DNA of 64,000 nucleotides from an uncultured bacterium (GCA_903937035.1 CAIZXS010000012.1:18314-82313), one strand, 5' to 3'; positions 6,363-52,925 are shown, numbered from the stretch's first letter. The notes: generated from the letters alone by a model not told the origin. Translations and numbers: made by a program.

Positions 6363-7610
6363 ATGTCAACTACTAAAATTGCTAAAAAACTAAAAAGTCT
6401 GCCAACTTCTCCTGGTGTCTACATCTTCAAAAATGATGCGGAGGTTATTTTATATGTGGGAAAAGCGACGTCGCTAAAAGACAGGGTTTCGTCATATTTT
6501 CAAAGTCGCAGTGGCTATGCTCGGCCAATCGAGATGTTTATGGACCAAGTCGCGGATATTGAAGTTCGGAAAACAGAAACAGTCCTCGAGGCATATATTT
6601 TGGAGCAGGAACTGATCAAGAATTGGCAGCCGAAGTTTAATGTGGATGGAAAAGATGATAAATCATTTTCTTATGTTGCAATTACAAAAGAAGATTTTCC
6701 ACGCATATTATTTTTACGAAAAAGAGAGATAGATCAAGATAGCGAAATAAAATCAAAATTTAGCAAAATCTATGGGCCATATATCTCAAAGAAAAATATT
6801 GAAATCGCACTGAAGATTCTCAGAAAAATTTTTCCTTATCATTCCAAAGTGCAAAAAACAGAGAAGGGTTGTTTGGATTTTCAGATTGGACTTTGTCCTG
6901 GGCCGTATGCTGGGGCGATTTCGAAAGATGATTATGCGAAAAATATTAGGGGAATCAAGATGATTTTAGCGGGGAAGAAAAAAGGTCTTATTGCCAAGAT
7001 GAAAAAGGAAATGTCGGATCTGAGTGAGAAACAAGAATTTGAAAAGGCTGGGAAGGTGAGAAATGCGATTTTTGCGTTGCAGTATATTCGCGATATTGCA
7101 CTCGTGTCATATAGTATGAAACATGAAACATATAACAAAAATGCAAATACAAAATCATTTCGCATCGAGGGTTATGATATTTCGAATATTTCTGGACGGT
7201 CCAGTGTTGGGTCTATGGTTGTTTTTGATAATTCTCAAGGGGAAATGGTAGCGAACAAAAGTCAGTATCGCAAATTTAAAATTAAAACGGTGGAAGGTGC
7301 GAATGACACGGCTTCAATGGCGGAAATTTTGGGGCGCAGATTTGGGAATAATTGGCCGCGGCCAGATCTCATAATTTTAGACGGTGGACAAGGGCATCTC
7401 ACTGCTGTGAGGCGTGTGCTCAAGAATTTTCATCTGGAAATTCCACTGCTCGCTGTCGCCAAGGGACCAAAGCGCAAAAAACTAGACCGCTATGCTTTCG
7501 GCAGTGTGCCGGAAATTTCGGACGAAATCATCGAACGCGTCAGGGATGAGGCGCATCGGTTTGCGATTACGTATCATAAAAAATTGCGGGGGAAGAGTTT
7601 TATGGAATAG
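6363..7610 (+). CDS. uvrC: Short UvrC (GIY-YIG + UVR + RNase H-like endonuclease domains; no C-terminal (HhH)2 domain)
   Basis: 'PTSPGVYIFKNDAEVILYVGKATSLKDRVSSYF' is GIY-YIG. 'EFEKAGKVRNAIFALQYI' is the UVR motif. 'RIEGYDISNISGRSSVGSMVVF...YRKFKIK...DDTASMAEILGRRF' is the second nuclease domain. Ends right after the 'RFAITYHKKLR' motif. Confidence 0.8.
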   Translation: MSTTKIAKKLKSLPTSPGVYIFKNDAEVILYVGKATSLKDRVSSYFQSRSGYARPIEMFMDQVADIEVRKTETVLEAYILEQELIKNWQPKFNVDGKDDKSFSYVAITKEDFPRILFLRKREIDQDSEIKSKFSKIYGPYISKKNIEIALKILRKIFPYHSKVQKTEKGCLDFQIGLCPGPYAGAISKDDYAKNIRGIKMILAGKKKGLIAKMKKEMSDLSEKQEFEKAGKVRNAIFALQYIRDIALVSYSMKHETYNKNANTKSFRIEGYDISNISGRSSVGSMVVFDNSQGEMVANKSQYRKFKIKTVEGANDTASMAEILGRRFGNNWPRPDLIILDGGQGHLTAVRRVLKNFHLEIPLLAVAKGPKRKKLDRYAFGSVPEISDEIIERVRDEAHRFAITYHKKLRGKSFME

Positions 7611-7721
7611 TTCCAGAACTTACGCCTTTGTTGAAAAGTTTTCAGCTATAGAATCAGCTTTTACTTGTTGGCGAAAATATGGTATTATTTTAGTATGCTT
7701 TCGGTTTAAAATGACTATATT

Positions 7722-10700
7722 TTGCGGATGAGAAAAATAAAAAAAACAAGAAAAATAGCTCTTAGGTTGAGAAGAATATTTTTCAAAATCAGGCAATTTA
7801 AGCTCAGACTTTTTTGGGTTGTTTTTTCGGCGGGCGCGAAGAGTTTGCCAGGGCGTTTTTGTGCGGGAATGAAAAAAATTCCCGGGACGATGGCAAATTT
7901 ACCAAGAAATATAAGAAATTTAAAATGGGTAAATATTAAGACTTTTTCTCGCAGAAATTATCCCTTGCTCTTGGCGATTGTGTTTTTGACCCCGGCTTTT
8001 ATTTTACTTTTCCTTTTTGTTAATTCTCGCATTCACAAGCAAACGACTCAAGCGGCGCCGTTTACAGGCGCAGTGAGAGTTTCCAAAGAGAACACCACTC
8101 TTTCGACCGCGGGAGGATGGCTCAAATCAATGGCTTTCTCCGGAGATGGAATCAATGGGGATGGTGATTATTTTCAGCCCATCCATCCTGGAGCCAGAGC
8201 GACCACTGAAGGCGCAGCAGGAACGTTGGCCGTGGGAGAGGTGGTGATGCCAACGATCACAGCTAATGCTTATGATGCGGCTGGGGCGGTGTTTATTCCT
8301 TGGAAGCCAAATACTAATGGAAATTTTTATGGCGTGACCTTGGCAGTGGCGAATCTCAATACTACTGCGGCTAACTTAAATGTAGTGGTGGAACTTTTGC
8401 GTTTTCCAACAGCATCCTATACTGGCACCCCTCCGACTGTTGTCTGGTCTAACTACGTTGCTTGCTCGGCAGTGAATACTTGTGTTTATGCCGCCGATAC
8501 AGTGATTGAAAGAACACAAGTGATGCGTTTTGATCAAAGCATATCCGGCGAAGCGGCCTATCCGGGGCAATACGGAATCCACTATATGGACTTTCGTTTT
8601 GATCCTTTAGCGGTCACGACAACTACGCATTATGGTTTTCGAGTTTATTATAACTCTTTAACGACAGCATCTACTTGGCCCAGGAACGGAGCGTCAAAAC
8701 CAACAGTAAATGCTGCGAATTTTGGTTTAGGAATTACTGATGTGGACACAGCCAACGCCTTGACAGTAACAGTTCCTTTGGCCAATACGACCCAATCGAG
8801 CTATGCAGTGGCAATCAATTCTGCCCCGGCTGTCGGTCAAGCCGCGGCTGCGCGTACTCAAAATGAGCATTGGAGTGGCACTTATTCTGACTCAAGTGGT
8901 AACTGGACGATTGCCGGTTCTGTTTCCGGGGTGCAAACAGCAAAATTGACTTCATCTACCGATGGAGGAACTGGGGTGGCGTGGGTTAATGATGGCGTGA
9001 CAAAGACAACATTGTCAGCTGACGCGACTGCCACTACAAAACTTTGCGTCAGTTCCATTGCTGGTTTTGCAGTCAATCAATATATTGACATCTGGGATGC
9101 GGACACAACTTCAATTCAAAGAATTATTGCTTCCGTGAGTTCTGCTGATGTCGGCTGTTCCAATGGTCCGTCAATTAATGTTACTGCAACTTTGGCAGCG
9201 ACCGATAAATTTACCCTTTCCAAAAATGCGACTGTGGCGCGAGCAATATGGAAATTGAGAATTATCCAAGGAGCGGAAGAAGCCTTCACGGAAAATATGC
9301 CGACAACGACAAAACTTTGCGTGGCCGATGCTTCACGCTTTTCTGTCGAGGCAACTGCCGGATCAAGCAATATTAACATTTGGGACGATAACTCGATCAT
9401 CGCCGCCAGAAGAATCACCACAATTTCATTTGCCGATGCTTCTTGCGCGAGTTTGAATAGTATCACGATTGACACCGCTATTACGGCCGGAACATATACA
9501 ATTGATAAAAACGCCAGAGTGGCGGAAATATCCGCTAATTTTTCTAACAATGGAACCCCGACTGATGGAAATATTTTTCGCTTCACGACTCTTAATATGG
9601 GACAAAATCCCGCCAAAATTGGAAATGGAAACAGTTTTGTTTTGCTGTATGGAAAAACCGCTGCTCCGGCCACTAGTGCGGTTAATTATCCCTGGATTGC
9701 TAACCAGCGGCATGCTTTTTTTGTGGCCTATGGTGATGCGGATACGACGGCGCCAGCTGATGGTGATATGGCGATTATCGGCGGTGGTGCGGCTGATCCT
9801 GACTCAGGTGATTCAGTCAATCTTTCCAATGATTTGGTTTTGGGAAATATTTCTCCACATACGGTTATGGTGGATAAAAATTTCGACATGCCAATGGCCT
9901 ATACAGGAGCGACCGGGGGAGGCGTGGGAAGTGGATTGACTACGCCAGCCACCGCTTCCTATGGTGGATCCGGTTTTGTTTCGATGCTAATCTCGACCAG
10001 GGCCAAGCTGGCTGTTTCCGATGCTATCAATCAGCGCTATCGACTTACTGCACCAGGAAGGATATTGCTATCTTCCGGTGCGTCTTTAGAATTGGGTTCG
10101 TCCGTCGATCCTTTGCTAAAAACAACAACAGTAGACTTATATCAGGATTCTGTCGGTCCATTAGTATCAACTGTGTTAACTTCTGACTCAACAACCAACA
10201 CCTATATTGACATGGCTTCCACTGCCGGGTTCTATATTGGAGATGTAGTAATGATTAAAGATAACAACAGTGTTCCGACAACAAGAATCATTGCGGCAGT
10301 CACTTCTTCCACTCGATTGACTTTCACGGCGGCGATGGTGGCCGGATACACCGTTGCTCAAGGTGCGACGGTTTCTCGCGGACCAAACACTGATGTGCCA
10401 ACCGGAGCAGACAGAAGAAGTTTCATCTATAGTGCCAGGGCTCAAGCAGCTCGAGTGAATATGTACTCTCAAGGGGCAGATGATTATCGGACGCCGCGGG
10501 CTGACTTAGCAGTGGATATCGATGGGAACATTGATACGGGCTATCTTGGAGCGCAACAAACGGCAGCCGGGAATGTTTGGATGGACGCCGCGGGGAGTTT
10601 GGCAGGCGATTGGTCGGCACTTGATCCACTTTCCGTCGCGCAAGGAAATTCCTATGCGGTCAATGATAATGATTCATCAATCGGCATGGGAGCCAATGAT

Positions 10701-13700
10701 GACGCTAGTGTTTTTCCGACTTGGACGGGAGTAGGAAGTCTTGGGACTAATGCTGATGCCGTCTACAATCCGGAGCAAAGTGAAATTGGAACGATTCCGC
10801 TGACCGATATCTATAACTATGACAATACGGGAGGTGTCTTTTCAGTGAACTACCAATCCGCATCTTCGTGGACAATTTTTGGTGATGGAGCAAATACGGA
10901 AAATAACGATGCGGTCTATTTCGGTGATCAGGGAAACACGCCAATCTATGCCTTGGAGTTTAATATTGGAACGGCTATTGGCGCGACTGCTAGTCGAATT
11001 TGGGAATATTGGAATGGATCGGCTTGGACTGAATTTGTTCCAAAATTTGGTTGGAAATATGTCCCGCGCGGAACGAATAATTATGGAGTGGGGGAATATT
11101 GTATCCCGTTTAATGCTGATCCGATATATCCCACAGCCACTGTTCAAATGACGGACACAAACACGCTTTTTGCTCCAGGGCAATACGTGAAAATTAAAGA
11201 CAATGATTCGGCGACCATAATTAGGCGCATTTCCACGGTGACAGCCGGAGCTCCGGCCAATGTAGTTTTCACTGAAATTATTCCGAGTGGCTACACAATT
11301 GCTCAGTCGGCCAAAGTTTGCATTTCAAACGGCGGTCAATGGCTGCCGATGGCGGCAAGTGATTTATTTTCTCAAACCGGGCGTACGATGATTTCTTGGA
11401 ATGCTTGGGATATGCCAAGCGCGGCAAAAACGACAGTCAACAGCACGAATGCTTATTGGGTGAGAAATCGTATTTCTGATTTCACATCTTGGACAACCGC
11501 GCCAATAAATCAGACAACTTCAGTCAGCATGCAAGGAGTGGAAAATGTGAACTCAGAAAATCTGACTGTTTCCAGTTCGGTTAGCGAAGCGAAGATAAGT
11601 CAGCTTTCCAACGGAGTTTCTTTTGATCCCAATGAAACCTGGACCCTTCGATATGATGATAATTCTACAGCTGTTTCAACTCTAAAAACTACTCGCTGGT
11701 ATGAATCGCAACTTGCTTCCTGGGGAACGGCGCATCGTTGGCTCAGTCCCAATCCGGATGGGGAAACTTCTGCTTACTATGAAAAAAATTCACAGGAAGC
11801 CAACTGGCATAGTCTCAACGGTGATTTTTCTTGGACTGATCAAAGTGTCTACGCTAAAGTCTATATGAATCAGCCAGTAGACGCGACAGTGGGAAGGCGC
11901 GTGGGAATATTTTTGCGTCAAGATGGTGATGATTATGGCTATGCTGCTTACATAACTAAATCAACCACCGTTTCTACCTTGGGTTGGTATTCAACTGCGC
12001 TCGGAGCAGAAACGGCAATTGGTACGGCAACTAACATCACCTTTAATGCTAATCAGTGGTATTGTTTGCGCGCTGAAGCAAATGGCACAACTCTTCAGGC
12101 CAAATTTTGGTCACCAGTTTCAGAAGACGCCGATTGTAATGGTGATATCAATGAACCAGGGACTTGGACAGAATCAGAAATAAATCAAACCGCTTTTATT
12201 GCCGGACGATTCGGTTTGGCGGCGGACATAATGCTGGCGCGTTTTGATGATGTAACAGTGAAAAACACAGCTGGCACAGAAACCTGGTTTAATGATAATT
12301 TCAATGATACCGGTTGCTGGAAGGTAATTGGTTCCATTCATGGAAGTCAAGGATGTGCCTATAATTCAGTCCCATTCACTTCTAGCTATCTTAATTTTAC
12401 GCTAAAACATCGAGGGGGGGTGCAATCCGGAGAAACTGGAATCAACGCGATAATCGGCCCATTGAATGCTCCGGAAGAAGGCGATGAAATTTATCTTTCT
12501 CCCTTTGAGCGGGGATCAAGTATCGGACTTGATGAGGCCGTGGGCATCACCACTTCTGACGCAAAAACTAAATATGAAAATTGGGATTTTGTCTATAACT
12601 CAACTTCCGGAAAATATGATGTGACCGGTTCGCAATATGGAGCAGCTGGGACGGCTACACCCGGAGCGACCTATACCTCTCCGGATAGCGAGGTGACCTT
12701 GAGAATAAAAGCGGGAACACCGGTTGGGCCAAAGTTTGGCAATCGAGCAGCTTATTTTCAAAACAGTTTTCAAAGAGGGGTGGGAAATTTTACCGGACTC
12801 AATAATCAATCTTCGGCCATTATCATTCAACCAACCTGGGTAGTAGCTGGTTCAGCCACTGGGTATAATGTTGAAGGAATTGGCGGGGTAGCAACACAAA
12901 AAGGCACAATGGATTTTTGGTTTAAGCCGAATTTTTCCGGCAGTCCTGACTACATACAGTATCTGTTTGATTATGCTCCCAATGGAAATACGGATAGGAT
13001 TTTTGCGCGAATTATGCCCAATGGCGTAATTGAAACTGTGGTTGCCCCGACTTTTGGAGTTGGAGCGACAGGAAAATTGGTCAAATCTTTTTCTGCAACC
13101 GCTGGTCAATGGTATCATTTCCGTTTAGCCTGGGAAGATTCTGATGCTGGACAGCTTAATATTAAAAAGGCCTGGATTGATGGCGCGGCTTTTACGAGTG
13201 CCAGTCAAGGGACAGCCTTGGGAGCGAGAGCGGCTAATGCGGGTTATTTGCGGCTTGGTAATTCTTGGCAGTACAATGCCGGCTTTGATGGCGCGATGGA
13301 TGAGTTCGCTATTTTTGACGATGCTGTCGATACTTCTAGCAGTTGTGACTGGGCATCTTCAGTGGCATTTACTGTTCCCACTACTCCTTGGACCAATGGG
13401 CAAACGGCGGGATGTACCACTGGGGGCGGAGAAGTGAGAACGGGGAATATCATATTTTTGACTCATTTTGACAATGCTTTTGAAAAACAAAAAGGGACAA
13501 TGATGCCGGATTATTTTATTGGACATCCGGCGATGGTTTTCACTAATGGCGCGGAGACACTGACTGGAGACCGGCTTCGTGTGGTGACGTATCCCAAGAG
13601 AACCAGGATTTGGATGGACAATACCGGATCGCAATATACCCCCGCGGCCAGAATCAAATATTCCGAAGGCTATAATATTGGAACCGCTCCCGGAACGGAA

Positions 13701-16700
13701 ATTGGCTGGGGGACAACTTTTCAATATCATCATAGAGCTGCTTCCGATAGCACTAGTCAGCCGATAACTTCACCGATTCTCAACCTAAGAAAACAGATAA
13801 GAATTTGGTCAGACGAAGATGTGAATGTGGCCAATTCTACTGCGCCGATTAATCAGGGATATGGATCACTGCTGTATTGGCCGAAAGCCATTGATGTTAA
13901 TCATATGGAACTTTCCCAATTGTATTATGGTTTTTATCTCTCCGGGAATCCTTTTACGACCAGCTTGCCATACCCCACTCAATATATTCGAAAAAGTGCT
14001 TTTAATAATGTGCAATACTATAATATTTACACTCTTTCCAAAACATTAGGCACTCAGGTGATTGATGATAATAATTTTTCCGCCCAAAGTGCCAATTATT
14101 ATCCTTTTCGAGAAGATACTTCAGCCAACATCACTTTTTCCAATAACTATGTCACGGGTTATTCTTCCGGCTATTTTAACTATTTAAATGGAGGAAGAAT
14201 CTTTAATATTTCTGGAAATAAATTTCTCAATGCTTATTACCCAGTCAGTCTTTTGGCAGGAACGGCCAAGGTTACCATTGCTAATAATGAATTTTGGCGC
14301 TTTCGGCGAGGCATTACGCTTAATGGAAACTCATTCATTCCGATGTCGGGGAATTCCTTTGATGGCGGAACTTCCTCGGAAACCAGCAATGGCTATTACG
14401 GAACAGGCATCTATGTGGCGCCAAGCTCTAGTAATGTAGAGGTGACTGATTCCAATTCAACCTTTGGAAAATCAATTTGGAATGAAGCCGATGTTTCCTT
14501 AGTTCCTGATACCACCTCTTGGCTCGCTGGTTCACTCTTGCGCTATACCGGAGAAAATTCTTCTTTCAATAGTAACTTCCACTATCTAGGCAACTCTACG
14601 CAAGATAAATTCGGTGGTGAATATTTGGCTACCGCTATTCCGGGAGTGGATGTTCGCATGGGGACAGGAAAGGATATTGTTAATTATACTAACTATGGGC
14701 TGATGAGAACGACTGGCCCAAATCTTATCGACACGACAGTTAGAACGTCTGGCGGGTATGCCTGGAGAATGGAATCAACTTCCAAAACTGATGCCTTGGA
14801 ATATACGGCCAAGGTGGTGGGTGTGGCGGGAAAGCCCCTCGCTATCACGGGGTATATCAGGATGAATGCAAATTACGGCACAGCTAATTTGCCAACAGTG
14901 ACTGTTTCCGGGCTGGGGATGACAGGCGCAAATCTTTCGTGGACAGCGAGTGCTACCGCTGACAGTTGGCAACAGTTTGTTATTTCTGGTACCCCAACAG
15001 AATCAGCTCTTGCTACGGTAGCTTTGTCAGTCAAGTCTGAGCCAACTGTGGCCGATTCAGGAACAGCTGAAAATGTTGATGACGGGCAAGGAATAAATGT
15101 GCCGACTCTAATTGAAGATGCAGATAAGAATTGGACTTGGAATCAGTGGACAGGTTACAAAATGCGAGATGACCAGGGCTTCATTTTTGACATTATTGGT
15201 AATACCGCAACCAGATTATTACTAAAAGGTACGCGGATTCCTTTCAGCAACACCTTGCCTACTCAGCCGTATGGTGGAATTTATGAAATATATTCTCCGC
15301 CCTATGTGTATCTGGATGATATTTCCGTTCTTTCTGGGACAGTGGATACGGGAACACTGGATTTCTATTCTCAGGGACAGCCGGTTTCTCCTTGGCTCTC
15401 GACCGGCCTAACAGCGGAAAATATTTGGGGAGCTCAATATTCCACTTTTGCTGATATCACCGGATCATTTGGTCAGTTGCTCAATGATTCCCTTGTTGCA
15501 AAATATTCTCGTGTGTCAGATCTGTCTCCAACTTTGACTGAATTCGACACCGACCTGGATTCCGCGACTGATGATTTCTATAATAATGGAGTAATAATTT
15601 TCACTGAAGGATTAAATGAGGGTGTGATGAGAAGAATTTCTGATTATGCGGGAGCTTCAAAAACAATCACAGTTGATCCGGCTCTGCCACTTATTCCATC
15701 TGACAATAATCGGTTTGCGATTATTGCCGCGACAGCTTCGGCCAGTGGTTCCGGCGGTGGGGCGACTGCTGCTGAGATTTGGAGTTATGTCTCGAGAACT
15801 CTGACGGATGCAACTTTGAATTCCGGAAGCTTGGCTACTGCGGCTGATGTGGCGAATATCCGTGCGGACATTACCAGTGTCCTGACTGAGCTTGGCACAG
15901 GTAATATTTCTGCCATTAAAACTAAAACCGATAGCATTGATTGGTCAGATGTGACCGGATTAGTCACTACGGCGGGCGAAATAAAAGCTAAAACGGACTC
16001 GATCAATTGGTCTGACGTGACGGGAATTGTGACAACTGCCGGGCAAATTAAATCCAAAACTGATACGATCGATTGGGATGCCGTGACTGCCATTAAAACT
16101 AGCACTGATACAATTGCTTGGAGCGATGTAACCGGCATTATTACCAGTAGTGGTCTCATTCAAGCTAAAACTGATACGATTAACTGGAGTGATGTGACGG
16201 GCATTAAAACTGCGACGGATAATATTGATTGGTTGGATATTTCTGCCATCAAAACCAAAACCGATACAATCGCATGGAGTGATGTGACCGGTATTAAATT
16301 AAACACAGACACGATTTCCTGGGGTGACATTACTACAATTAAAGCCAATGTAGCGACCTTGATTGCGGAAATTGGCACTGGCAATATTTCTGCCATTAAA
16401 ACAAGAACTGACAGCATTAATTGGTCTGATGTCACCGGCATCATAACTTCTGCTGGCGAAATTAAAGCCAAAACAGATACAATCGATTGGGCAAATGTCA
16501 CAGGTATCAAAACTAAAACAGATACAATTGATTGGGATAATGTTACAGGCATCAAAACAAAAACCGATACAATAGCTTGGGGTGATATTGCTGTTATCCA
16601 GTCATCAATTGATGCGTTAAATGACATTTCTGCGGCTGACATTTGGACCTATGCCACGCGAACAATTACGGGTGATGTTGCGCTCACGGCTGATTCTCGA

Positions 16701-19700
16701 AAGGCGATTTGGGACACGGCTTGCACAATTCTCAACACTTCCGGAAGTATTGGAAAGCAGGTGTGTGAAAATCTGGACATTAAAGTTTCCGAAGCGGGGG
16801 GGGCAGGTGGTACTACGCTTACGGCGGCTGATGTTTGGAATTATACCACTAGAACGATAACTGGCCTGACTGATCCGGCACTTTCTGCTTTGGCCAGCAG
16901 TGTTTGGGATAATGCTACACGGACGCTTTCATCCTATGGTAATGATATAACTGCGCAGGAAGTTTGGGACACATTGACCTCAAGCCTCACGACAATTGAT
17001 TCAGTCGGAAAACTGCTTGTGACAAATGTTGATGAAACGATTTCTTCTCGCGCAACTCAGGCGAGCGTGGACGCAATGGCTTCTAATTTGGCGACGGTGC
17101 TTTCAGAAATCGGGACTGGCAATATTTCCGCGATAAAAACAAAAACGGACACAATCAATTGGAGCAATGTGACAGGACTTGTGACTACTGCTGGTGAAGT
17201 TAAGTTGAAGACTGACACAATCAACTGGAGCGATATTGGAGCGATCAAAACAAGCACTGACACGATTGATTGGGATGACATTACCACAATCAGGCTCAAA
17301 ACCAATACTATCGAGTGGGGCGATATTGCGGATATCAAATCCAATGTCGCGATCCTTATTTCGGAAATTGGAACGGGCAATATTTCCGCCATCAAAGCGG
17401 GAACGGACACAATTAGTTGGTCTGATATTACCGGACTCATAACCACAAGTGGAGCAATAAAATTGAAAACCGACACGATTGACTGGAACAAAGTTGATGC
17501 GATAAAAACTAAAACGGACACAATCAGTTGGGATGATGTTACAGGTATTAAATTGAAAACGGATACGATTAATTGGACAAACATTGATACGCTTAACTCG
17601 CGAGTGGATACCACCATTTCTTCGCGTGCCTCGCAGGCCAGTTTGGACGCGCATGAATCAGCCGATGCTACCTTTAGAACGAATACTACGGAAAGTCTGG
17701 GTGAAATTTCAACTGACGTGACCAATTTAGTTTTGAATGTGGGAGAGATCCGCACGAGTCTTTCAGCGATTGAAACTAAGATTGATACGATTGGAGCTAA
17801 TCTGAATTCAGTCGATGATAAAATTGACATCCTTGATACTAATGTGGATAGTATTAAAAATACTGCCGAAGACACGAATATTAAGGTTTCTGCTATCCAG
17901 ACAGTCGTGAACAATATTTTAAATAAGTGGGGCTCTTATTCCGCCGCTGATATTATTGGTTATGTTGACGCGCTGGAAGGTTATGTCGGGCAACCGGATG
18001 ATGATTCTTTGCAGGAAACATTATTTGGTCGCCTAAAAAAACTGGACGGATCAGCTGGTGGTGGCGGTACGCTTGATTTGGTCTATGCGCAAGTGCAAGC
18101 TACGCACAATAAACTGTTGTCCGTGGAGAGCGATCTTGGCTTTGAAGGTAAGACGACTAGTGCGTATGATGAGATTGCTGCGATTAAAAATTATGTGGAT
18201 ACGGTTGAAAGCGGGATAAATAATTTGGATAGTCGCACTTCCAGCATTGCCTCTTCTGTCTCAACTGTTTCAAATGACCTCAAAGATGTAACTGGTCAAA
18301 TCGGCAAGGTGGATGTTGGCTCTTTTGATTCCATATTTGAAGTGCAAAAAACTGACATTGAGTCTTTGAAAAACAAGGTATTGGAACTAAAAGCGCTGGC
18401 AGATATTAATCGACAACTGCTGGAACGCACCGTAGATGAGCCCACGGTCAAGGTGATGATGGAATGGGGCTCGGTGATTATTAAATTTATTATTGTTAAT
18501 CCGTCTGACTCGAAAGAACAAAAGGTGCCATTTAAGGCCTATCTTCCAAAGGAAGTCCGCCAGGAATACGTCATGGATCTGGGCGGTATGGAGCTTAATT
18601 ATGACACAACGACGGAACAGTATTATGTAACGGCGGATATTTTTCTGAAATCCGGTCAAGCAATTACTCGCGCAGTTGAGATTAAGGATATTTGGGTGTT
18701 TTCTGACGAAGAGATCGCGTCTATCAGAAAGCAAGCTGATGAGTTGAGTGCTGGACTAACGGACAACTCCTATAAAACTCAAGCCATTACACTTAAGACC
18801 GATATCAATACTCGTCTCGATAGGATTGTCAGGAAGCAAAAGGACAATAACGCTACTCCGCAAGATCATATTTTAGCCTATCGGGAAAATCAAGAAGAAA
18901 TGAAAGCGGTAACAGAAAACACTAAAGCGCTGAAAGATTTATTGCTTAACTCTGGTGTTGGCAAAAATTTTCTGGCTTCAATCGGTGGAATTCAAACTTT
19001 TGCCACCTGGGGGATTGTCTTGGCTTTGATTTTTGGTATGGGCGCTCTGGGATTTTTCTATTATGCTCTCTGGAGAAAAAAAATTATTAATGCTAATAAA
19101 CCCGATCCTAAGGAAGATGAGACTATCAAGACCGACAAAGAGTCTGATCAAGAATTAGAAACACAAATCATTGAGCTTCCGACGCCATCGCCGGCACGCC
19201 TAGTCGGGGTTTCTCTTTCTTGGCAAAAAAAGATTTTCACCGGCTTAGTTGTTTTAGCGAAAGACTTAGTGAGATTTATTGGATATATTTTGAAAAAAAT
19301 AATTTCTCTTTCGATAAAAATTTGGGTGACAGCTCTCATATTAGCGGTGCTGTTTGTAGGGGTTTCTACTCTTTGGCACTATCGAGAAAATGAAAAATTG
19401 AACGTGCAAAAAGAAAAACAATCGATTAGCTTGCCAGAAAACCAAGCAAAGGAAGATATTGAAAATTTAAATGAAAGGGGCAGAAAAGTAACTAAGATGG
19501 TAGATGAAATAAATAAAAAAGCAGAAGAAAAAACCAATACAAATCAAAAAATCGATGCTTTATTAGAAGATCAGGAGCCAGCGATGGATGAGTCAGGAAA
19601 GGCAGAAAAAGAAAATAAATTGGTGATAAAGAATACTCCAACTAATTTTCTCAATGTTCGCAAGGATTCATCAGTAGAGAGTGAGATTGTTGGCAAGGTT

Positions 19701-20543
19701 TATCCGAAAGAAAGTTATGTCTATTCAGCTGAAAAAAGTGGTTGGTATGAAATTATTCTTAAAGATAGTCAGAAGGGTTGGGTTAAGGGGCAGTACGTGG
19801 AGCTATCTGCTAGGGGAGCTGTTCAATCTGATGGGCTTGCTGCCCAGGATACTCCGGAAAATCAACTGGTGGTCAAAAATACGCCCACAGGATATCTTAA
19901 TGTGAGAGACGCGGCCTCTGCCGGTGGCGCTCTTTTGGGAAAAGTTTACCCAGGAGAAAAATATATTTTTAGTGAGAAAAAAGATGGTTGGTATAAAATT
20001 AAAATTAAGGATGATGAAGAGGGTTGGGTTATTGGTGAATATGTTGATGCTAAGGGTCCATTGGCGCTTGATGATTTGGACAGAGCGGATAAAAAAGAAG
20101 TTTTAGGCGCTAGCGTCAGCACGGATAGGTTCATTGTTATTAGGCAAACATCTTTAAATTTTGTGAATGTCTATGAAAAGCCAAGCTACACGGAGAGAAT
20201 TATTTCAAAGGCGTATCCTGGTGAGGATTATGCTTTTTTGGAAGTTCAAAGCGGGTGGTACCGGGTAGTGCTTGGCGATAAGCGAGAAGGCTGGATTTTA
20301 GGTGAATTTTTGAAAGTGGAAGACAATGGAAAAACTCAGGATGATGATCAATGGATAGATGTGCAGCCAAGTGATGGGTCGTATGTCAATATTCGCAAAG
20401 ACGCCACGGATTCATCGGCGATTGTGGAGAAGATTTATCTTTCCAGTCATTTTTTGAAATTAGAGGAAAAAAATGATTGGGTAAAAATAAAATTGTTGGA
20501 TGGGAATGTCGGTTGGGTTTTAGGAAAATTTGTGAATAAATAA
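7722..20543 (+). CDS. Giant (~4270 aa) membrane-anchored surface protein: N-terminal TM, LamG/ConA-like lectin domains, parallel beta-helix repeats, two blocks of 15-aa tandem repeats, coiled-coil, two TM helices, four C-terminal SH3b domains
   Basis: Single uninterrupted ORF. LamG-like 'GTMDFWFKPNF...WYHFRLAW...LNIKKAWIDG...MDEFAIFDDAV'. Beta-helix 'NISGNKFLNAYYPV...IANNEFW..ITLNGNSFIPMSGNSFDG'. Repeats 'IKTKTDTIDWSDVTG'. TM 'FATWGIVLALIFGMGALGFFYYALW'. Four SH3b repeats of 'LVVKNTPTGYLNVR...GKVYPGE.Y....K..GWYKIKL.D...GWV.G.YV'. Exact start codon uncertain (7722, ~7869 or ~7890). Confidence 0.85.
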   Translation: MRMRKIKKTRKIALRLRRIFFKIRQFKLRLFWVVFSAGAKSLPGRFCAGMKKIPGTMANLPRNIRNLKWVNIKTFSRRNYPLLLAIVFLTPAFILLFLFVNSRIHKQTTQAAPFTGAVRVSKENTTLSTAGGWLKSMAFSGDGINGDGDYFQPIHPGARATTEGAAGTLAVGEVVMPTITANAYDAAGAVFIPWKPNTNGNFYGVTLAVANLNTTAANLNVVVELLRFPTASYTGTPPTVVWSNYVACSAVNTCVYAADTVIERTQVMRFDQSISGEAAYPGQYGIHYMDFRFDPLAVTTTTHYGFRVYYNSLTTASTWPRNGASKPTVNAANFGLGITDVDTANALTVTVPLANTTQSSYAVAINSAPAVGQAAAARTQNEHWSGTYSDSSGNWTIAGSVSGVQTAKLTSSTDGGTGVAWVNDGVTKTTLSADATATTKLCVSSIAGFAVNQYIDIWDADTTSIQRIIASVSSADVGCSNGPSINVTATLAATDKFTLSKNATVARAIWKLRIIQGAEEAFTENMPTTTKLCVADASRFSVEATAGSSNINIWDDNSIIAARRITTISFADASCASLNSITIDTAITAGTYTIDKNARVAEISANFSNNGTPTDGNIFRFTTLNMGQNPAKIGNGNSFVLLYGKTAAPATSAVNYPWIANQRHAFFVAYGDADTTAPADGDMAIIGGGAADPDSGDSVNLSNDLVLGNISPHTVMVDKNFDMPMAYTGATGGGVGSGLTTPATASYGGSGFVSMLISTRAKLAVSDAINQRYRLTAPGRILLSSGASLELGSSVDPLLKTTTVDLYQDSVGPLVSTVLTSDSTTNTYIDMASTAGFYIGDVVMIKDNNSVPTTRIIAAVTSSTRLTFTAAMVAGYTVAQGATVSRGPNTDVPTGADRRSFIYSARAQAARVNMYSQGADDYRTPRADLAVDIDGNIDTGYLGAQQTAAGNVWMDAAGSLAGDWSALDPLSVAQGNSYAVNDNDSSIGMGANDDASVFPTWTGVGSLGTNADAVYNPEQSEIGTIPLTDIYNYDNTGGVFSVNYQSASSWTIFGDGANTENNDAVYFGDQGNTPIYALEFNIGTAIGATASRIWEYWNGSAWTEFVPKFGWKYVPRGTNNYGVGEYCIPFNADPIYPTATVQMTDTNTLFAPGQYVKIKDNDSATIIRRISTVTAGAPANVVFTEIIPSGYTIAQSAKVCISNGGQWLPMAASDLFSQTGRTMISWNAWDMPSAAKTTVNSTNAYWVRNRISDFTSWTTAPINQTTSVSMQGVENVNSENLTVSSSVSEAKISQLSNGVSFDPNETWTLRYDDNSTAVSTLKTTRWYESQLASWGTAHRWLSPNPDGETSAYYEKNSQEANWHSLNGDFSWTDQSVYAKVYMNQPVDATVGRRVGIFLRQDGDDYGYAAYITKSTTVSTLGWYSTALGAETAIGTATNITFNANQWYCLRAEANGTTLQAKFWSPVSEDADCNGDINEPGTWTESEINQTAFIAGRFGLAADIMLARFDDVTVKNTAGTETWFNDNFNDTGCWKVIGSIHGSQGCAYNSVPFTSSYLNFTLKHRGGVQSGETGINAIIGPLNAPEEGDEIYLSPFERGSSIGLDEAVGITTSDAKTKYENWDFVYNSTSGKYDVTGSQYGAAGTATPGATYTSPDSEVTLRIKAGTPVGPKFGNRAAYFQNSFQRGVGNFTGLNNQSSAIIIQPTWVVAGSATGYNVEGIGGVATQKGTMDFWFKPNFSGSPDYIQYLFDYAPNGNTDRIFARIMPNGVIETVVAPTFGVGATGKLVKSFSATAGQWYHFRLAWEDSDAGQLNIKKAWIDGAAFTSASQGTALGARAANAGYLRLGNSWQYNAGFDGAMDEFAIFDDAVDTSSSCDWASSVAFTVPTTPWTNGQTAGCTTGGGEVRTGNIIFLTHFDNAFEKQKGTMMPDYFIGHPAMVFTNGAETLTGDRLRVVTYPKRTRIWMDNTGSQYTPAARIKYSEGYNIGTAPGTEIGWGTTFQYHHRAASDSTSQPITSPILNLRKQIRIWSDEDVNVANSTAPINQGYGSLLYWPKAIDVNHMELSQLYYGFYLSGNPFTTSLPYPTQYIRKSAFNNVQYYNIYTLSKTLGTQVIDDNNFSAQSANYYPFREDTSANITFSNNYVTGYSSGYFNYLNGGRIFNISGNKFLNAYYPVSLLAGTAKVTIANNEFWRFRRGITLNGNSFIPMSGNSFDGGTSSETSNGYYGTGIYVAPSSSNVEVTDSNSTFGKSIWNEADVSLVPDTTSWLAGSLLRYTGENSSFNSNFHYLGNSTQDKFGGEYLATAIPGVDVRMGTGKDIVNYTNYGLMRTTGPNLIDTTVRTSGGYAWRMESTSKTDALEYTAKVVGVAGKPLAITGYIRMNANYGTANLPTVTVSGLGMTGANLSWTASATADSWQQFVISGTPTESALATVALSVKSEPTVADSGTAENVDDGQGINVPTLIEDADKNWTWNQWTGYKMRDDQGFIFDIIGNTATRLLLKGTRIPFSNTLPTQPYGGIYEIYSPPYVYLDDISVLSGTVDTGTLDFYSQGQPVSPWLSTGLTAENIWGAQYSTFADITGSFGQLLNDSLVAKYSRVSDLSPTLTEFDTDLDSATDDFYNNGVIIFTEGLNEGVMRRISDYAGASKTITVDPALPLIPSDNNRFAIIAATASASGSGGGATAAEIWSYVSRTLTDATLNSGSLATAADVANIRADITSVLTELGTGNISAIKTKTDSIDWSDVTGLVTTAGEIKAKTDSINWSDVTGIVTTAGQIKSKTDTIDWDAVTAIKTSTDTIAWSDVTGIITSSGLIQAKTDTINWSDVTGIKTATDNIDWLDISAIKTKTDTIAWSDVTGIKLNTDTISWGDITTIKANVATLIAEIGTGNISAIKTRTDSINWSDVTGIITSAGEIKAKTDTIDWANVTGIKTKTDTIDWDNVTGIKTKTDTIAWGDIAVIQSSIDALNDISAADIWTYATRTITGDVALTADSRKAIWDTACTILNTSGSIGKQVCENLDIKVSEAGGAGGTTLTAADVWNYTTRTITGLTDPALSALASSVWDNATRTLSSYGNDITAQEVWDTLTSSLTTIDSVGKLLVTNVDETISSRATQASVDAMASNLATVLSEIGTGNISAIKTKTDTINWSNVTGLVTTAGEVKLKTDTINWSDIGAIKTSTDTIDWDDITTIRLKTNTIEWGDIADIKSNVAILISEIGTGNISAIKAGTDTISWSDITGLITTSGAIKLKTDTIDWNKVDAIKTKTDTISWDDVTGIKLKTDTINWTNIDTLNSRVDTTISSRASQASLDAHESADATFRTNTTESLGEISTDVTNLVLNVGEIRTSLSAIETKIDTIGANLNSVDDKIDILDTNVDSIKNTAEDTNIKVSAIQTVVNNILNKWGSYSAADIIGYVDALEGYVGQPDDDSLQETLFGRLKKLDGSAGGGGTLDLVYAQVQATHNKLLSVESDLGFEGKTTSAYDEIAAIKNYVDTVESGINNLDSRTSSIASSVSTVSNDLKDVTGQIGKVDVGSFDSIFEVQKTDIESLKNKVLELKALADINRQLLERTVDEPTVKVMMEWGSVIIKFIIVNPSDSKEQKVPFKAYLPKEVRQEYVMDLGGMELNYDTTTEQYYVTADIFLKSGQAITRAVEIKDIWVFSDEEIASIRKQADELSAGLTDNSYKTQAITLKTDINTRLDRIVRKQKDNNATPQDHILAYRENQEEMKAVTENTKALKDLLLNSGVGKNFLASIGGIQTFATWGIVLALIFGMGALGFFYYALWRKKIINANKPDPKEDETIKTDKESDQELETQIIELPTPSPARLVGVSLSWQKKIFTGLVVLAKDLVRFIGYILKKIISLSIKIWVTALILAVLFVGVSTLWHYRENEKLNVQKEKQSISLPENQAKEDIENLNERGRKVTKMVDEINKKAEEKTNTNQKIDALLEDQEPAMDESGKAEKENKLVIKNTPTNFLNVRKDSSVESEIVGKVYPKESYVYSAEKSGWYEIILKDSQKGWVKGQYVELSARGAVQSDGLAAQDTPENQLVVKNTPTGYLNVRDAASAGGALLGKVYPGEKYIFSEKKDGWYKIKIKDDEEGWVIGEYVDAKGPLALDDLDRADKKEVLGASVSTDRFIVIRQTSLNFVNVYEKPSYTERIISKAYPGEDYAFLEVQSGWYRVVLGDKREGWILGEFLKVEDNGKTQDDDQWIDVQPSDGSYVNIRKDATDSSAIVEKIYLSSHFLKLEEKNDWVKIKLLDGNVGWVLGKFVNK
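15910..16600 (+). repeat. Tandem 45-bp (15-aa) coding repeats, block 1, inside giant gene
   Basis: Repeated units aaaacngatacnattgattggagtgatgtgaccggnatt encoding (I)KTKTDTIDWSDVTG with occasional 7-aa inserts. The higher-order unit EIGTGNISAIK recurs. Confidence 0.9.
17110..17600 (+). repeat. Tandem 45-bp (15-aa) coding repeats, block 2, inside giant gene
   Basis: Same KTDTI(D/N)W(S/D)DVTGI unit as block 1. EIGTGNISAIK occurs at four positions across the two blocks. Confidence 0.9.
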
Positions 20544-20707: not shown

Positions 20708-21175
20708 CTAATAAAGTAAGCTGGCGATAGTTCGATTGTAGGTGTAGTGGATGAGTATCGCTAAGGATAGTGCAAAAGGAAAGATCCAGCGATACTTTTG
20801 GGAAAAGAAGAGCATTAGTAGTATAGTAAAAACATGTAGTGTAGAGGTCAAGAGGAGTCTTTCTATGAAAATAAGCGGTGAGGCGTAGAGATTAGAGTTG
20901 GAAAGATAAAAGATATTTTCCGAAAAAGCGAAAAATAATCCAATCAAAATAGACAATTGCAATTGGAAAGTTCTCTTTCCTGGGATAGTTAGAATGAGCA
21001 GAACAAAAACAGCTTTTATGCCTTCTTCAATGATATAGGGATAGGGAAGAATCTTTTCAATTGGTAGCAAGATAAGCGAGCTCAGCAGTGCGGCAAGTGG
21101 TAGGGCGATTGCCAAGTAGAGAGATTCGGCTGATTTTTTTTCACCTTTTTCATTTTTTGTTTGAAATGAAGTCAT
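20708..21175 (-). CDS. PrsW-like/CPBP-like intramembrane metalloprotease family protein (155 aa)
   Basis: Polytopic membrane protein with motifs 'IIEEGIKAV' (EExxK), 'FAFSENIFY' (FxxxE) and 'HYTYN' (HxxxN). Confidence 0.45.
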   Translation of the reverse strand: MTSFQTKNEKGEKKSAESLYLAIALPLAALLSSLILLPIEKILPYPYIIEEGIKAVFVLLILTIPGKRTFQLQLSILIGLFFAFSENIFYLSNSNLYASPLIFIERLLLTSTLHVFTILLMLFFSQKYRWIFPFALSLAILIHYTYNRTIASLLY

Positions 21176-22112
21176 AAGTAATTTTTGATAAATTAGAAAT
21201 CAGTTCTTTTGATTTTGACAACTCTAAATCTTTAGTCATGATGCAAAGATAGTAGGGACTACTATTCTCGTAGACAATTCCGCAATCAGAAATGCCATCC
21301 GGGCGCTCACCGTACTTATGCGCAACCTGAATTTCCGGTGGAACTCCGGCAGAAATAAGGCTTTCCACTTGAGTGTCTGTGGTAATGCTGAGGGCTTTTT
21401 CTGAAAGTTCCGGGGAGACATAGGTTGCGAAATAGAGAGCCTTAAAAAGGCGAGTATATCCGCGCGGAGTGACAGTTGGTTCGCTTTTTTCCTGATACGG
21501 ATTAGGGATGCCCACATGAGCAAAAATAGCATTTAGTTCAGAGGGGGAGAGCTGTCGACGCAAGACATTTTTTGCCGTATTATCTGAAGCAAGGATCATT
21601 TCTTCTAGTAGATTCCAAAAAGATATTTCATAACCAGCACCTTTTTTGTATAATTTACCAGAATTGCTATCGAGATCTTCCGGAAGAATTTTCATGCTAT
21701 CTTTGAGAGAAATTTCTTCTAGCGTAACTTTTTTCAGGATGCCAAGCATTATGGGAATTTTTAAAAGGCTGGCTGGCGTAAATCCTGTTTTCTCATTGAT
21801 GCCAAGCCAAGCTCCTGTGGTTGAATCTTGAAGAAAAAAACCAATATTTTGCTCCGCTCCAAAATGGGAGATTTCTTTTTCGATTGCCGGCTTTAAATCA
21901 TTGAATTGGATAATAAGCGAATCGGTTTGGACATTAGAGTCTATCGGTACTTGGCTTTTTTGGTTGACAAGCTGGTAGTGTTTTTCTGGCTGACTAGTCA
22001 AGATGCTATTGGTATGTTTTGACTTTGTGTATAAGAATATATTCAAGATTAGTGAAAGAAAAAACAAAAACAAGACCAGCGCAGTTGCTCTATTTTTAAA
22101 AAATAAATTCAT
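21150..22112 (-). CDS. Class A beta-lactamase-like / PBP-family serine hydrolase with N-terminal TM anchor
   Basis: SxxK 'ASLLK', SDN 'LASDNTAKN', plus N-terminal hydrophobic helix. Overlaps the downstream PrsW-like gene by 26 bp (operon). Confidence 0.6.
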   Translation of the reverse strand: MNLFFKNRATALVLFLFFLSLILNIFLYTKSKHTNSILTSQPEKHYQLVNQKSQVPIDSNVQTDSLIIQFNDLKPAIEKEISHFGAEQNIGFFLQDSTTGAWLGINEKTGFTPASLLKIPIMLGILKKVTLEEISLKDSMKILPEDLDSNSGKLYKKGAGYEISFWNLLEEMILASDNTAKNVLRRQLSPSELNAIFAHVGIPNPYQEKSEPTVTPRGYTRLFKALYFATYVSPELSEKALSITTDTQVESLISAGVPPEIQVAHKYGERPDGISDCGIVYENSSPYYLCIMTKDLELSKSKELISNLSKITYDFISNKK

Positions 22113-23070: not shown

Positions 23071-23164
23071 TTAACAGCTTGCCAAAACCCAAAAGCTAGT
23101 GTAAAATTTGTTCCTAGTAATGCTATTGACGTCTTTTTTAAAAAAATATAACTCTTTTTTGTCT

Positions 23165-40110: not shown

Positions 40111-40262
40111 TGCGCCGGACAGGAACTGAGCTTTAATTTTAAAAGCCTAATATCAAATTTCCAATCAAATCCAAAATTCAAAGTCCAAAGCATTTTTGAC
40201 ATTTGGATTTCGAGTTTTGCTTGACATTGGAAATTTGAGCTTTGAAGTTATTCATTTCTACG

Positions 40263-40336
40263 TGCGCCCTGAGGGACTCGAACCCCCGACCCTCTGGTCC
40301 GAAGCCAGATGCTCTAATCCGCTGAGCTAAGGGCGC
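40263..40336 (-). tRNA. tRNA-Arg (anticodon TCG as read)
   Basis: Minus-strand cloverleaf: GCGCCCT/AGGGCGC acceptor, D-arm GCTC..GAGC, anticodon stem TCTGG/CCAGA with loop CTTCGGA, T-arm GGGGG TTCGAGT CCCTC. Confidence 0.8.
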
Positions 40337-40365
40337 ATAGACACTTTCTTATTTCGTTTCTAAAA

Positions 40366-40437
40366 TTTTCAGGGGGGTGGCTAGAGAGAATCGAACTCTC
40401 GACGCAGGTACCACAAACCCGAGTTTTACCACTAAAC
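40366..40437 (-). tRNA. tRNA-His (GTG) with encoded G-1
   Basis: Acceptor GTGGCTA/TAGCCAC with extra 5' G opposite discriminator C. Anticodon stem CGGGT/ACCTG, loop TTGTGGT. T-arm GAGAG TTCGATT CTCTC. Confidence 0.8.
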
Positions 40438-40462
40438 TATAGCCACCACTCTGAAAACTTTA

Positions 40463-40535
40463 ATTTTTCCTGTGCCCTCACCAAGATTCGAACTTGGGAC
40501 CATCTCCTTAAGAGGGAGCTGCTCTACCAACTGAG
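40463..40535 (-). tRNA. tRNA-Lys (CTT)
   Basis: Acceptor GCCCTTA/TGAGGGC, D-arm GCTC AGTTGGTA GAGC, anticodon loop CTCTTAA, T-arm CCAAG TTCGAAT CTTGG. Confidence 0.8.
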
Positions 40536-40544
40536 CTATAAGGG

Positions 40545-40640
40545 CGAAACCATGAAACATGTAGCATAAAACATGTAACAGGATAAATTATACATCAAAT
40601 CATGCTTTTGTTACATGCTGCATGTTTTATGTTTCATGAG
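40545..40640. repeat. Imperfect ~30-bp-arm palindrome in tRNA operon spacer (catgaaacatgtagcataaaacatgtaaca ... tgttacatgctgcatgttttatgtttcatg)
   Basis: Arms are near reverse complements with permuted inner 7-mers. Shares the atgaaacatgtaaca motif with two coding regions (7117, 62739). Confidence 0.6.
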
Positions 40641-40644
40641 AAAG

Positions 40645-40717
40645 TGCGCCGGGCAGGAATCGAACCTGCGACCAATAGCTTAGAAGGCTACTGCTCTATC
40701 CACTGAGCTACCGGCGC
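40645..40717 (-). tRNA. tRNA-Arg (TCT)
   Basis: Acceptor GCGCCGG/CCGGCGC, anticodon stem GTAGC/GCTAT with loop CTTCTAA, T-arm GCAGG TTCGATT CCTGC. Confidence 0.8.
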
Positions 40718-52524: not shown

Positions 52525-52616
<92 letters not shown>

Positions 52617-52792
52617 AACGAAGTGAATAAGGAGAGGAGCAAGCCAACTGCTTGGCTTGCGTGAGGGATTTGAAAGACGGAGCGCGGCGGCGCGTTGAAA
52701 AGTAATAATATTACTTTTCAAGGGTCGAGCAAATTTTTAGCAAAAAATTATGCGTGACCAAATCTTCATTTTGTTCTCAATCTTAGTATACT

Positions 52793-52880
52793 GGAGAGAT
52801 GGCCGAGTGGTTTAAGGCAACAGTCTTGAAAACTGTCGTACTGTTAAAGGTACCGTGAGTTCGAATCTCACTCTCTCCGC
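52793..52880 (+). tRNA. tRNA-Ser (TGA), long variable arm
   Basis: GGAGAGA acceptor, anticodon stem ACAGT/ACTGT with loop CTTGAAA, variable arm, T-arm GTGAGTTCGAATCTCAC. Confidence 0.8.
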
Positions 52881-52925
52881 CTTCGCTAAAGCTTCGACGG
52901 ATAAATCCGCAGTCTTAAATCTATT

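Follow-up and report, generated by a model that had tools for sequence, protein, structure and literature searches.

How ultra-small bacteria that belong to the Candidate Phyla Radiation (CPR) recognise and hold other cells is largely an open question, and almost none of them has been cultured. In one such bacterium, Vampirococcus lugosii, giant membrane proteins are proposed to form a fibrous surface for host recognition and attachment (PMC8080830). Giant1-5 of Apilactobacillus kunkeei are β-solenoid giants, with a C-terminal SH3b-like domain that was proposed to hold them on the producer's cell wall (PMC12863079). Here, we describe a giant gene of a 64,000-nucleotide stretch of DNA from an uncultured bacterium (GCA_903937035.1 CAIZXS010000012.1:18314-82313); the whole stretch is referred to as the window, and the gene occupies positions 7722..20543 of its plus strand, counted from the first letter. 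Giant CPR surface proteins are already known as a class, and the window protein has itself been deposited, but its deposited copies carry the source name 'hypothetical protein' and their stored domain hits are SH3 alone. It is the stalk together with the membrane-proximal anchor, rather than the lectin-like modules, that is most conserved and most widely shared; the anchor is kept, the ectodomain and the stalk length vary, and the family defined by this anchor, which no Pfam family covers, is found mainly in CPR genomes.

The window protein resembles the giants of V. lugosii in belonging to a small-genome CPR bacterium, in size (up to 4,163 aa in V. lugosii) and in the inferred membrane location, whereas those proteins, compared by description only, contain WD40, PKD, DUF11, integrin and fibronectin domains, and the part of the report considered here describes neither a conserved stalk/anchor module nor an SH3b tail (PMC8080830). 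Giant1-5 of A. kunkeei are also alike in size (3,000-8,000 aa), in having an elongated β-solenoid as well as Ig-like regions and in the C-terminal SH3b-like domain, but they have no predicted transmembrane (TM) segment, whereas the window protein has three, two of which make up a hairpin that immediately precedes its SH3b domains (PMC12863079). They also come from another phylum, the coiled-coil and repeat stalk belongs to the window protein, and the likeness noted is one of architecture. Trimeric autotransporter adhesins of the YadA/BadA type follow a head-stalk-anchor plan, with a β-helix or lectin-like head and a long coiled-coil stalk of short repeats that differ in number between strains. 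The window protein lacks the C-terminal outer-membrane β-barrel translocator that defines them; it is anchored by α-helical TM segments and SH3b domains at its C-terminus and gave no Pfam match to a YadA-type β-barrel. This likeness is an architectural analogy, not family membership. The giant proteins of Omnitrophota are likewise very large and belong to ultra-small bacteria that depend on a host, but they are far larger and are built around long antiparallel β-helix tubes or SecA- or dockerin-type regions, none of which was detected in the window protein (bioRxiv 10.1101/2023.11.21.568195). In a limited literature search, we found no description of this family, of its conserved stalk/anchor module or of the pairing of that module with a TM hairpin and SH3b domains, of the reuse of this module under different heads across CPR lineages, of a stalk unit shared with virion proteins, or of LamG/SH3 giant proteins in CPR bacteria.

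The open reading frame (ORF) runs for 4273 codons without an internal stop and takes up about 12.8 kb, one fifth of the window, as a preliminary description of this DNA had stated. The exact protein was found on four contigs that were read and is listed on contigs of up to 84 kb, with NCBI, JGI/IMG and ENA as sources, and a copy in an independent assembly (Logan) is 100% identical across 4137 aa and is ended only by the contig edge. The DNA copies of the internal repeats have a mutual identity of just 60-85%, which makes their collapse during assembly unlikely. Together, the identical ORF on several contigs, the Logan copy and the diverged repeats indicate that the ORF is real and reproducible at the assembly level, where no frameshift or chimerism was seen and the gene is intact. 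Its G+C content is 0.43-0.47 across most of its length, compared with about 0.39-0.40 in most of the window. Public gene calls begin the protein at ATG 7728 (4271 aa) or ATG 7890 (4217 aa), and residues are numbered here from TTG 7722 throughout. The preliminary description had left the start at 7722, 7869 or 7890, as no clear Shine-Dalgarno motif is present; several candidate starts do stand, but the missing motif is uninformative, because Shine-Dalgarno-like motifs, read by eye, are rare upstream of 21 other genes in the window. A sigma-70-like promoter match precedes every candidate start (Table 1).

Intact, colinear, full-length orthologs are P0013 (4253 aa; its 110-kb contig holds a set of genes like that of CPR bacteria), P0032 (3726 aa) and those of L009 (3932 aa) and L011 (3919 aa; the chromosome measures 945 kb), and L008 has a further colinear one of at least 3894 aa; protein identities of orthologs are 45-76%. 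The gene is a large investment, as its ortholog makes up about 1.2% of the 945-kb chromosome. A word-indexed search of 5.8e9 protein clusters listed four homologs for aa 101-1200 and a single homolog for aa 1201-2400; the index overlooked a known ortholog, and these counts are lower bounds. The orthologs are best conserved at aa ~2200-2700 (58-86 identical residues per 100 within aa 2301-2700) and at aa ~3500-3800, while the repeat arrays of the stalk and the number of SH3b copies vary among them: P0032 is without both arrays, the L002 ortholog is without array 2 and part of array 1, and orthologs carry two or three SH3b copies, compared with four in the window protein. Frame changes split the orthologous genes in L002 and L012 near aa 775 and in L003 near aa 1980, which are either assembly errors or real decay; as the change is the same in L002 and L012, at identical alignment coordinates, these two loci probably represent the same genome.

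The stretch at aa ~3540-3800 is a well-conserved unit in at least 30 proteins. This anchor module of about 250 aa runs from the coiled-coil end through a β-sandwich ('PVV.TW..GSV...I.NP...FKA.LP.E') and then a helical segment ('PQDHI.AYREN') to a TM helix ('GGIQTFATWGI'). In this region the window protein shares 30-71% identity with 17 other members (alignments A4 and A5), and it has the N-terminal TM segment and large variable ectodomain upstream of the module that also characterise the family. A pattern scan covering one genome per species, with a seven-sequence query, located the module in 20 loci, a distribution that is biased to sequences retaining 'GIQTFATW' or 'PQDHI.AYR'. In 11 of these 20, the record title gives a lineage of the CPR (Moraniibacteriota, Falkowbacteria, Kaiserbacteria, Zambryskiibacteriota, Paceibacterota, Parcubacteria or the Patescibacteria group), and the remainder bear generic or automatic labels. 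The shortest carrier ORF has 702 aa and is cut off by its contig end, the longest has 3932 aa, and the window protein is the largest family member found in this analysis. Carriers end in one of two ways, either with one TM segment that only a short tail follows or with a TM segment, a loop, a second TM segment and 170-415 further residues; distant relatives have a clean two-TM hairpin followed by SH3_3. Four of the five carriers scanned end in SH3_3, and their ectodomains hold Laminin_G_3, MG2, Ig_Rha78A_N or DUF7483. Ahead of TM1, distant members (L013, L014, L016, L020 and L022-L025) share the motif 'LVPDFLIGHPNLWDNLK.L.KHPQFKPLRM', predicted to be cytoplasmic, while the Moranbacteria clade has a different, basic N-terminal tail ending in 'RR(N/H)LPL'. 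The C-terminal module serves as a searchable handle that finds the equivalent protein in many CPR lineages despite wholly different outer parts.

The GroEL encoded in the window groups with proteins of Candidatus Moraniibacteriota, a close homolog of the giant protein carries the NCBI name Candidatus Moranbacteria, and the best genome match of the anchor module is a metagenome-assembled genome of Candidatus Moraniibacteriota. These sequence affinities support Candidatus Moranbacteria (CPR/Patescibacteria) as the source organism, which fits the earlier guess of a CPR episymbiont.

The order of modules along the protein was given correctly in the preliminary description: the N-terminal TM anchor, a lectin-like and a β-helix part, two arrays of 15-aa repeats, a long coiled coil, two closely spaced TM helices and four SH3b domains all have their counterparts in our analysis, and hidden Markov model searches recovered Laminin_G_3, Beta_helix and SH3_3 above their cut-offs (Table 1). 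SH3_3 (PF08239) scores 124.6 bits against a cut-off of 27 (E 1.7e-36) over four stretches, SH3_4 and SH3_16 are likewise above their own cut-offs, and the NCBIfam and PHROG matches to this region are of the wall-binding or endolysin type; elsewhere in the protein they are to generic coiled coils. In PDB sequence and profile searches with the N-terminal, central and stalk regions, only SH3-type domains were matched at E<0.01, and these matches fell on the profile's C-terminal end. Four lysine or arginine (K/R) residues lie upstream of TM1 and two downstream, and the K/R counts at the TM segments obey the positive-inside rule in the order in, out, in, out from the N-terminus; together with the TM segments and the clean hairpin-SH3_3 ends of distant relatives, these counts predict that the SH3b domains lie outside the cytoplasm. 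An alignment of orthologs shows a conserved Ala followed by 'FTG' after TM1 (aa ~112-116), a possible signal-peptidase site. The β-sandwich, which is the core of the conserved anchor module, belongs to no Pfam family. The loop that joins TM2 to TM3, predicted to be cytoplasmic, keeps the motif E(L/I)PTP.P in the window protein, P0013 and L008-L012, with EISTPSP in one ortholog; this proline-rich motif could be a docking or phosphorylation site. No LP.[TSA]G sortase motif is present anywhere in the giant protein.

The stalk is built of several kinds of repeat. The two arrays contain 20 units of 15 or 22 aa in total, with the consensus 'KTKTDTI(D/N)WSDVTG', and array 2 is a diverged duplicate of array 1. 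Between them lies a helical segment that carries a recurrent 45-aa unit, with the consensus '..AIWDALTSALTT.GSIGKLLVDN.DATISSR' and no Pfam family, which was also found alongside MG2 and dockerin domains in smaller genome and metagenome proteins. An exhaustive HMMER search with aa 2640-3330 returned 535 proteins, 144 of them at E <=1e-10, and most of the 535 matches fall on the inter-array helical segment. Some of these proteins have only the stalk repeats in common with the giant protein, and several are giants of other architecture (LamG repeats, FG-GAP or Ig-like arrays). P0021 shares the full stalk, the membrane-proximal module and a TM helix, P0023 extends only to the start of the membrane-proximal module, where its sequence ends, and one match comes from a record labelled Deltaproteobacteria; a PHROG scan of 79 repeat-sharing proteins gave scattered matches only. 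The coiled coil is indicated by a hydrophobic period of 3.5 across aa 3295-3560, which recurs at aa 3880-3960, and by long helices predicted with AlphaFold2 (AF2), and it would be about 39 nm long if it formed one continuous helix. Its PDB-profile matches to viral fusion and fibre coiled coils are weak and non-significant. In an AF2 model of aa 2700-3890 built from 50 sequences, the coiled coil and the anchor are confident and the 15-aa arrays are not; a Foldseek search with this model against the PDB and viral structures gave generic helical matches only, none of them significant.

A Pfam scan of the whole protein yields SH3 families alone, and LamG and Beta_helix surface only when 600-aa segments are scanned, which indicates that whole-protein Pfam scans of giants can overlook real domains. 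One LamG module was recovered in this way, as Laminin_G_3 (PF13385) with 45.1 bits against a cut-off of 27.6, and the family is also on record for the orthologs P0013 and P0014. The preliminary description had proposed at least two such modules; one of them stands, and all three motifs that it quoted sit within this single Pfam-positive module. The candidate second module, at aa ~1325-1520, was rejected, as its hhalign comparison with the confirmed module gave a probability of 0.9% and it matched no Pfam family and no PDB profile; one ortholog of this region has a sub-threshold SO2946-like_C match in Pfam. The β-helix proposed earlier as pectate-lyase-like holds, marginally, as a generic Beta_helix (PF13229) repeat model, at 26.6 bits against a cut-off of 25.9, and its translation contains repeat-like 'N.F..N....GI.L.GNS' runs, but no catalytic family match supports the enzymatic character. 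The N-terminal part contains four small β-barrel repeats, for which hhalign gave 97-98% between related pairs; in an AF2 model of aa 101-1300 from seven sequences, the mean predicted local distance difference test score (pLDDT) is 40, and only these barrels are usable. The conserved region between the β-helix and the stalk includes, at aa ~2570-2590, the first 'IW...GSFGQLL' unit.

Table 1. Features of the giant gene and of its surroundings in the window
Feature	Residues (aa)	Position	Strand	Remarks
Sigma-70-like promoter match		7660..7688	+	TTTACT-17-TATTAT, TG ahead of -10; consensus match only
Giant ORF		7722..20543	+	Starts TTG 7722, ATG 7728, ATG 7869, ATG 7890; stop TAA 20541-20543
K/R-rich N-terminal tail, predicted cytoplasmic		7722..7964	+	Length depends on true start; poorly conserved among close orthologs
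TM1, signal anchor	82-100	7965..8021	+	Hydropathy 2.97
N-terminal ectodomain	~113-1324	8058..11693	+	Contains four ~70-aa small β-barrel repeats
Small β-barrel repeat 1	426-500	8997..9221	+	Self-BLAST, hhalign, AF2 pLDDT 70-80
Small β-barrel repeat 2	520-595	9279..9506	+	Self-BLAST, hhalign, AF2
Small β-barrel repeat 3	812-890	10155..10391	+	Self-BLAST, hhalign, AF2
Small β-barrel repeat 4	1135-1205	11124..11336	+	Self-BLAST, hhalign, AF2
Candidate second lectin-like module	~1325-1520	11694..12281	+	Not confirmed
LamG/concanavalin-A-like module (Laminin_G_3, PF13385)	~1722-1869	12885..13328	+	E 1.5e-11
Parallel β-helix repeats (Beta_helix, PF13229)	~2088-2244	13983..14453	+	E 5.4e-6
Conserved region between β-helix and stalk	~2245-2700	14454..15821	+	No family match
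Repeat array 1	~2726-2965	15897..16616	+	Twelve 15/22-aa units
Inter-array helical segment	~2966-3124	16617..17093	+	'VW..TRTLT ... IWD..LTT.GSIGK' units
Repeat array 2	~3125-3300	17094..17621	+	Eight 15/22-aa units
Heptad coiled-coil stalk	~3305-3568	17634..18425	+	Hydrophobic period 3.5; AF2 helices pLDDT 70-85
Membrane-proximal 7-strand β-sandwich	~3575-3654	18444..18683	+	AF2 pLDDT 85-96; alignments A4, A5
Conserved helical segment 'PQDHILAYREN'	~3662-3755	18705..18986	+	pLDDT mostly >90; alignment A4
TM2	3765-3783	19014..19070	+	Preceded by 'GGIQTFATWGI' motif
Predicted cytoplasmic loop	3784-3859	19071..19298	+	'E(L/I)PTP.P' motif and amphipathic segment
TM3	3860-3878	19299..19355	+	
Charged heptad-periodic linker, TM3 to SH3b	3879-3966	19356..19619	+	Period 3.5; composition
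Four SH3_3 domains	3967-4026, 4049-4108, 4138-4197, 4212-4271	19620..20534	+	
UvrA		2762-5755		Upstream of giant gene
UvrC, short (415 aa)		6363-7610		Upstream of giant gene
PrsW-family protease gene (155 aa)		20708-21175	-	Convergent with giant gene
Beta-lactamase2-family gene		21150-22112	-	Convergent with giant gene
Second UvrA paralog		23108-25972		Downstream of giant gene
YgjP-like gene, GroEL, nine tRNA genes				Downstream of giant gene; tRNA genes further on

The reading that we favour, with confidence and doubt about equally balanced, is that the giant protein is a head-stalk-anchor surface fibre of the Moranbacteria cell, whose most likely role is contact with the envelope of a host or partner. 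In the arrangement that we infer for its topology, peptidoglycan and glycan binding, oligomeric state and part in attachment, the K/R-rich N-terminus would lie in the cytoplasm and TM1 would lead into an ectodomain of 3,660 residues. TM2, the short cytoplasmic loop and TM3 would form a membrane hairpin, beyond which about 395 residues would again lie outside and end in the four SH3b domains. These domains may bind the cell's own peptidoglycan beside the hairpin, so that the base would be fixed to both membrane and wall. The β-sandwich/helical module and the coiled coil of about 260 residues would make up the membrane-proximal, probably oligomeric stalk, lengthened by the helical 'IWD..GSIGK' units and by a variable number of 15-aa repeats. 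The variable distal part, with LamG, β-helix repeats, small β-barrels and some 1,200 unassigned residues, would present putative glycan- or surface-binding modules outward and touch the envelope of the host or partner cell. A fixed anchor combined with varying repeat arrays and SH3b number is a pattern typical of surface fibres. The building blocks are also of a fibre type, as stalk units recur in other giant proteins and one unit recurs in ORFs of a virion structural module. The role in attachment is plausible by analogy, on the basis of the domain types, the biology of the lineage, the Vampirococcus proposal and the architecture of the Apilactobacillus giants. These proteins provide candidates for proteomics, cryo-electron tomography, binding assays of the SH3b, LamG and β-helix parts, and comparisons of head swaps and stalk lengths.

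Several observations weigh against this reading of the protein as a fibre. The Beta_helix match is marginal, and the approximately 1,200 residues of the N-terminal ectodomain have no assignable fold, without a match in Pfam, PHROG, NCBIfam or the PDB. AF2 modelling gave no structure for the 15-aa arrays, array 1 being predicted as coil with a pLDDT of 30-45. In close orthologs, an extra amphipathic segment separates TM2 from TM3 and reaches a score of 2.06 (L011), which casts some doubt on the exact number of membrane passes. In addition, the conserved cytoplasmic motif before TM1 in distant members suggests that the N-terminus is membrane-held unless it is cut at the Ala before 'FTG'; if it is freed there, a free-ended fibre would result, and if not, a doubly tethered loop. 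TM1 and this motif suggest that both ends of the ectodomain may be held at the membrane, which would fit a loop or canopy better than a free-ended fibre.

The double tether, by TM1 with the N-terminal motif of distant members and by the C-terminal hairpin, also fits an envelope-architecture protein, that is, a fibrous coat or spacer that serves the wall, an S-layer zone or the spacing of sister cells and recognises no specific partner. We regard this as an unlikely explanation, but one to be taken seriously: the wall binding of the SH3b domains would be directed at the cell's own surface, the locus lies amid housekeeping genes with partly conserved neighbours, and the fibrous material of Vampirococcus fills the space between sister cells too (PMC8080830). 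However, ectodomains are swapped wholesale among family members while the anchor is kept, and stalk length differs among close orthologs, which is more typical of proteins facing changing external ligands than of a scaffold; furthermore, no SLH or other S-layer family is among the Pfam matches.

The Beta_helix match raises the further question of whether the protein could be a surface-tethered polysaccharide depolymerase, in which the β-helix and β-barrels, in the manner of phage tailspikes, would cut capsule, exopolysaccharide or wall polymers of the host for access or feeding and LamG would bind the substrate. In a Foldseek search, the β-barrel units gave a weak local match to a domain of the phage K1 capsule lyase 7w1c (E 7.6e-4) and weaker ones to ATPase crown barrels and GH110 (E 0.05 for the latter), and the stalk unit is common to virion proteins. 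The structural matches, however, span no more than about 100 columns of a model of low confidence and are a lead, not evidence. Beta_helix is just 0.7 bits over its threshold, and no lyase or glycosidase family was matched in the giant protein (Pfam with E up to 5, NCBIfam 0.01); the likelihood of such an enzyme is slim.

The link to virion proteins rests on the 45-aa unit, which occurs in the form 'IWD..TS.LTT.GSIGKLL.DN.DA.ISSR' on 51 viral contigs (L028-L078, IMG/VR), in ORFs of 286-1010 aa. Ten of these carrier ORFs were scanned and matched no PHROG family. In the myovirus-like L034, the carrier (7344-9056) has the head genes on one side and the tail sheath gene on the other, a placement that fits a fibrous virion protein. 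The window protein shares this unit with ORFs of virion modules and, like phage tailspikes and fibres, combines a β-helix and lectin-like modules with a coiled coil, and the L002, L004 and L005 orthologs have a small HTH_17 (excisionase/MerR-type) gene immediately upstream. These features might point to a phage-derived element domesticated in the chromosome, for instance the fibre of a prophage, a receptor decoy or a protein for superinfection exclusion. Unlike phage fibres, however, the window gene is chromosomal, with membrane and wall anchors, and its flanks are housekeeping genes (UvrA and UvrC upstream; PrsW, β-lactamase-family, YgjP-like, UvrA and GroEL downstream) without any phage genes, in a neighbourhood that is partly conserved across genomes. 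The TM hairpin with the SH3b anchor is a feature of cellular envelopes, no relatives of the 15-aa repeats were found in the viral collection, and PHROG gave only weak matches of the coiled coil to families of unknown function and lysis-type matches of the SH3b and TM parts (amidase, weak Rz-like spanin), with neither a structural family nor a virion gene module. A phage-derived origin is very unlikely. An assembly artefact or decaying pseudogene is scarcely credible: the gene contains repeats, and its orthologs in L002/L012 and in L003 have frame changes, each at its own position, but the identical ORF recurs in JGI, NCBI, ENA and Logan assemblies, the DNA of the repeats has diverged, four or more further orthologs are intact and colinear from end to end, and by a rough estimate 4273 open codons at this composition are vanishingly unlikely by chance.

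There is a small chance that the conserved parts (the N-terminal motif with TM1, the β-sandwich/helical module, the hairpin and the E(L/I)PTP.P loop) are more than a passive anchor and represent a new envelope-spanning device, mainly of CPR bacteria. Such a device would bear interchangeable host-binding heads on an adjustable stalk made partly of units shared with virions, could signal host contact into the cell or undergo processing by the adjoining PrsW-type protease, and would amount to a general attachment and sensing organelle of episymbiotic bacteria.

The neighbourhood of the giant gene is conserved in part across related genomes. A PrsW gene adjoins it in six related loci (L002, L008, L010, L011, L012 and L025), five of which hold orthologs, and a β-lactamase-family gene is next to it in L010 and L011. 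In L015 and L027, which hold distant members of the family, uvrA is likewise the gene immediately upstream, so the position of the locus may be old. Contigs titled 'uncultured Gammaproteobacteria bacterium' (L009, L010, L012 and L015) bear close orthologs or family members and have PrsW (L010, L012), β-lactamase-family (L010) and uvrA (L015) genes as common neighbours; these automatic labels are probably wrong. The HTH_17/MerR-type genes upstream of orthologs encode 59-68 aa and lie at 53-232 in L002, 2160-2342 in L004 and 472-678 in L005; in the window there is no such gene upstream, and UvrC takes its place.

Within the window, the short PrsW ORF overlaps the β-lactamase-family ORF by 26 nt. 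The tRNA genes include the clusters Arg-His-Lys-Arg at 40262-40717 (minus strand) and Ser-Ser-Pro at 52525-52999 (plus strand), which are ordinary features. The regions upstream of the window's genes are A/T-rich, and a -10-like box (TAAAAT, TATAAT) lies 6-17 nt before several ATGs, including those at 2762, 37418 and 53875; boxes at this distance suggest, from the sequence, that mRNAs of this genome are leaderless or have a very short leader.

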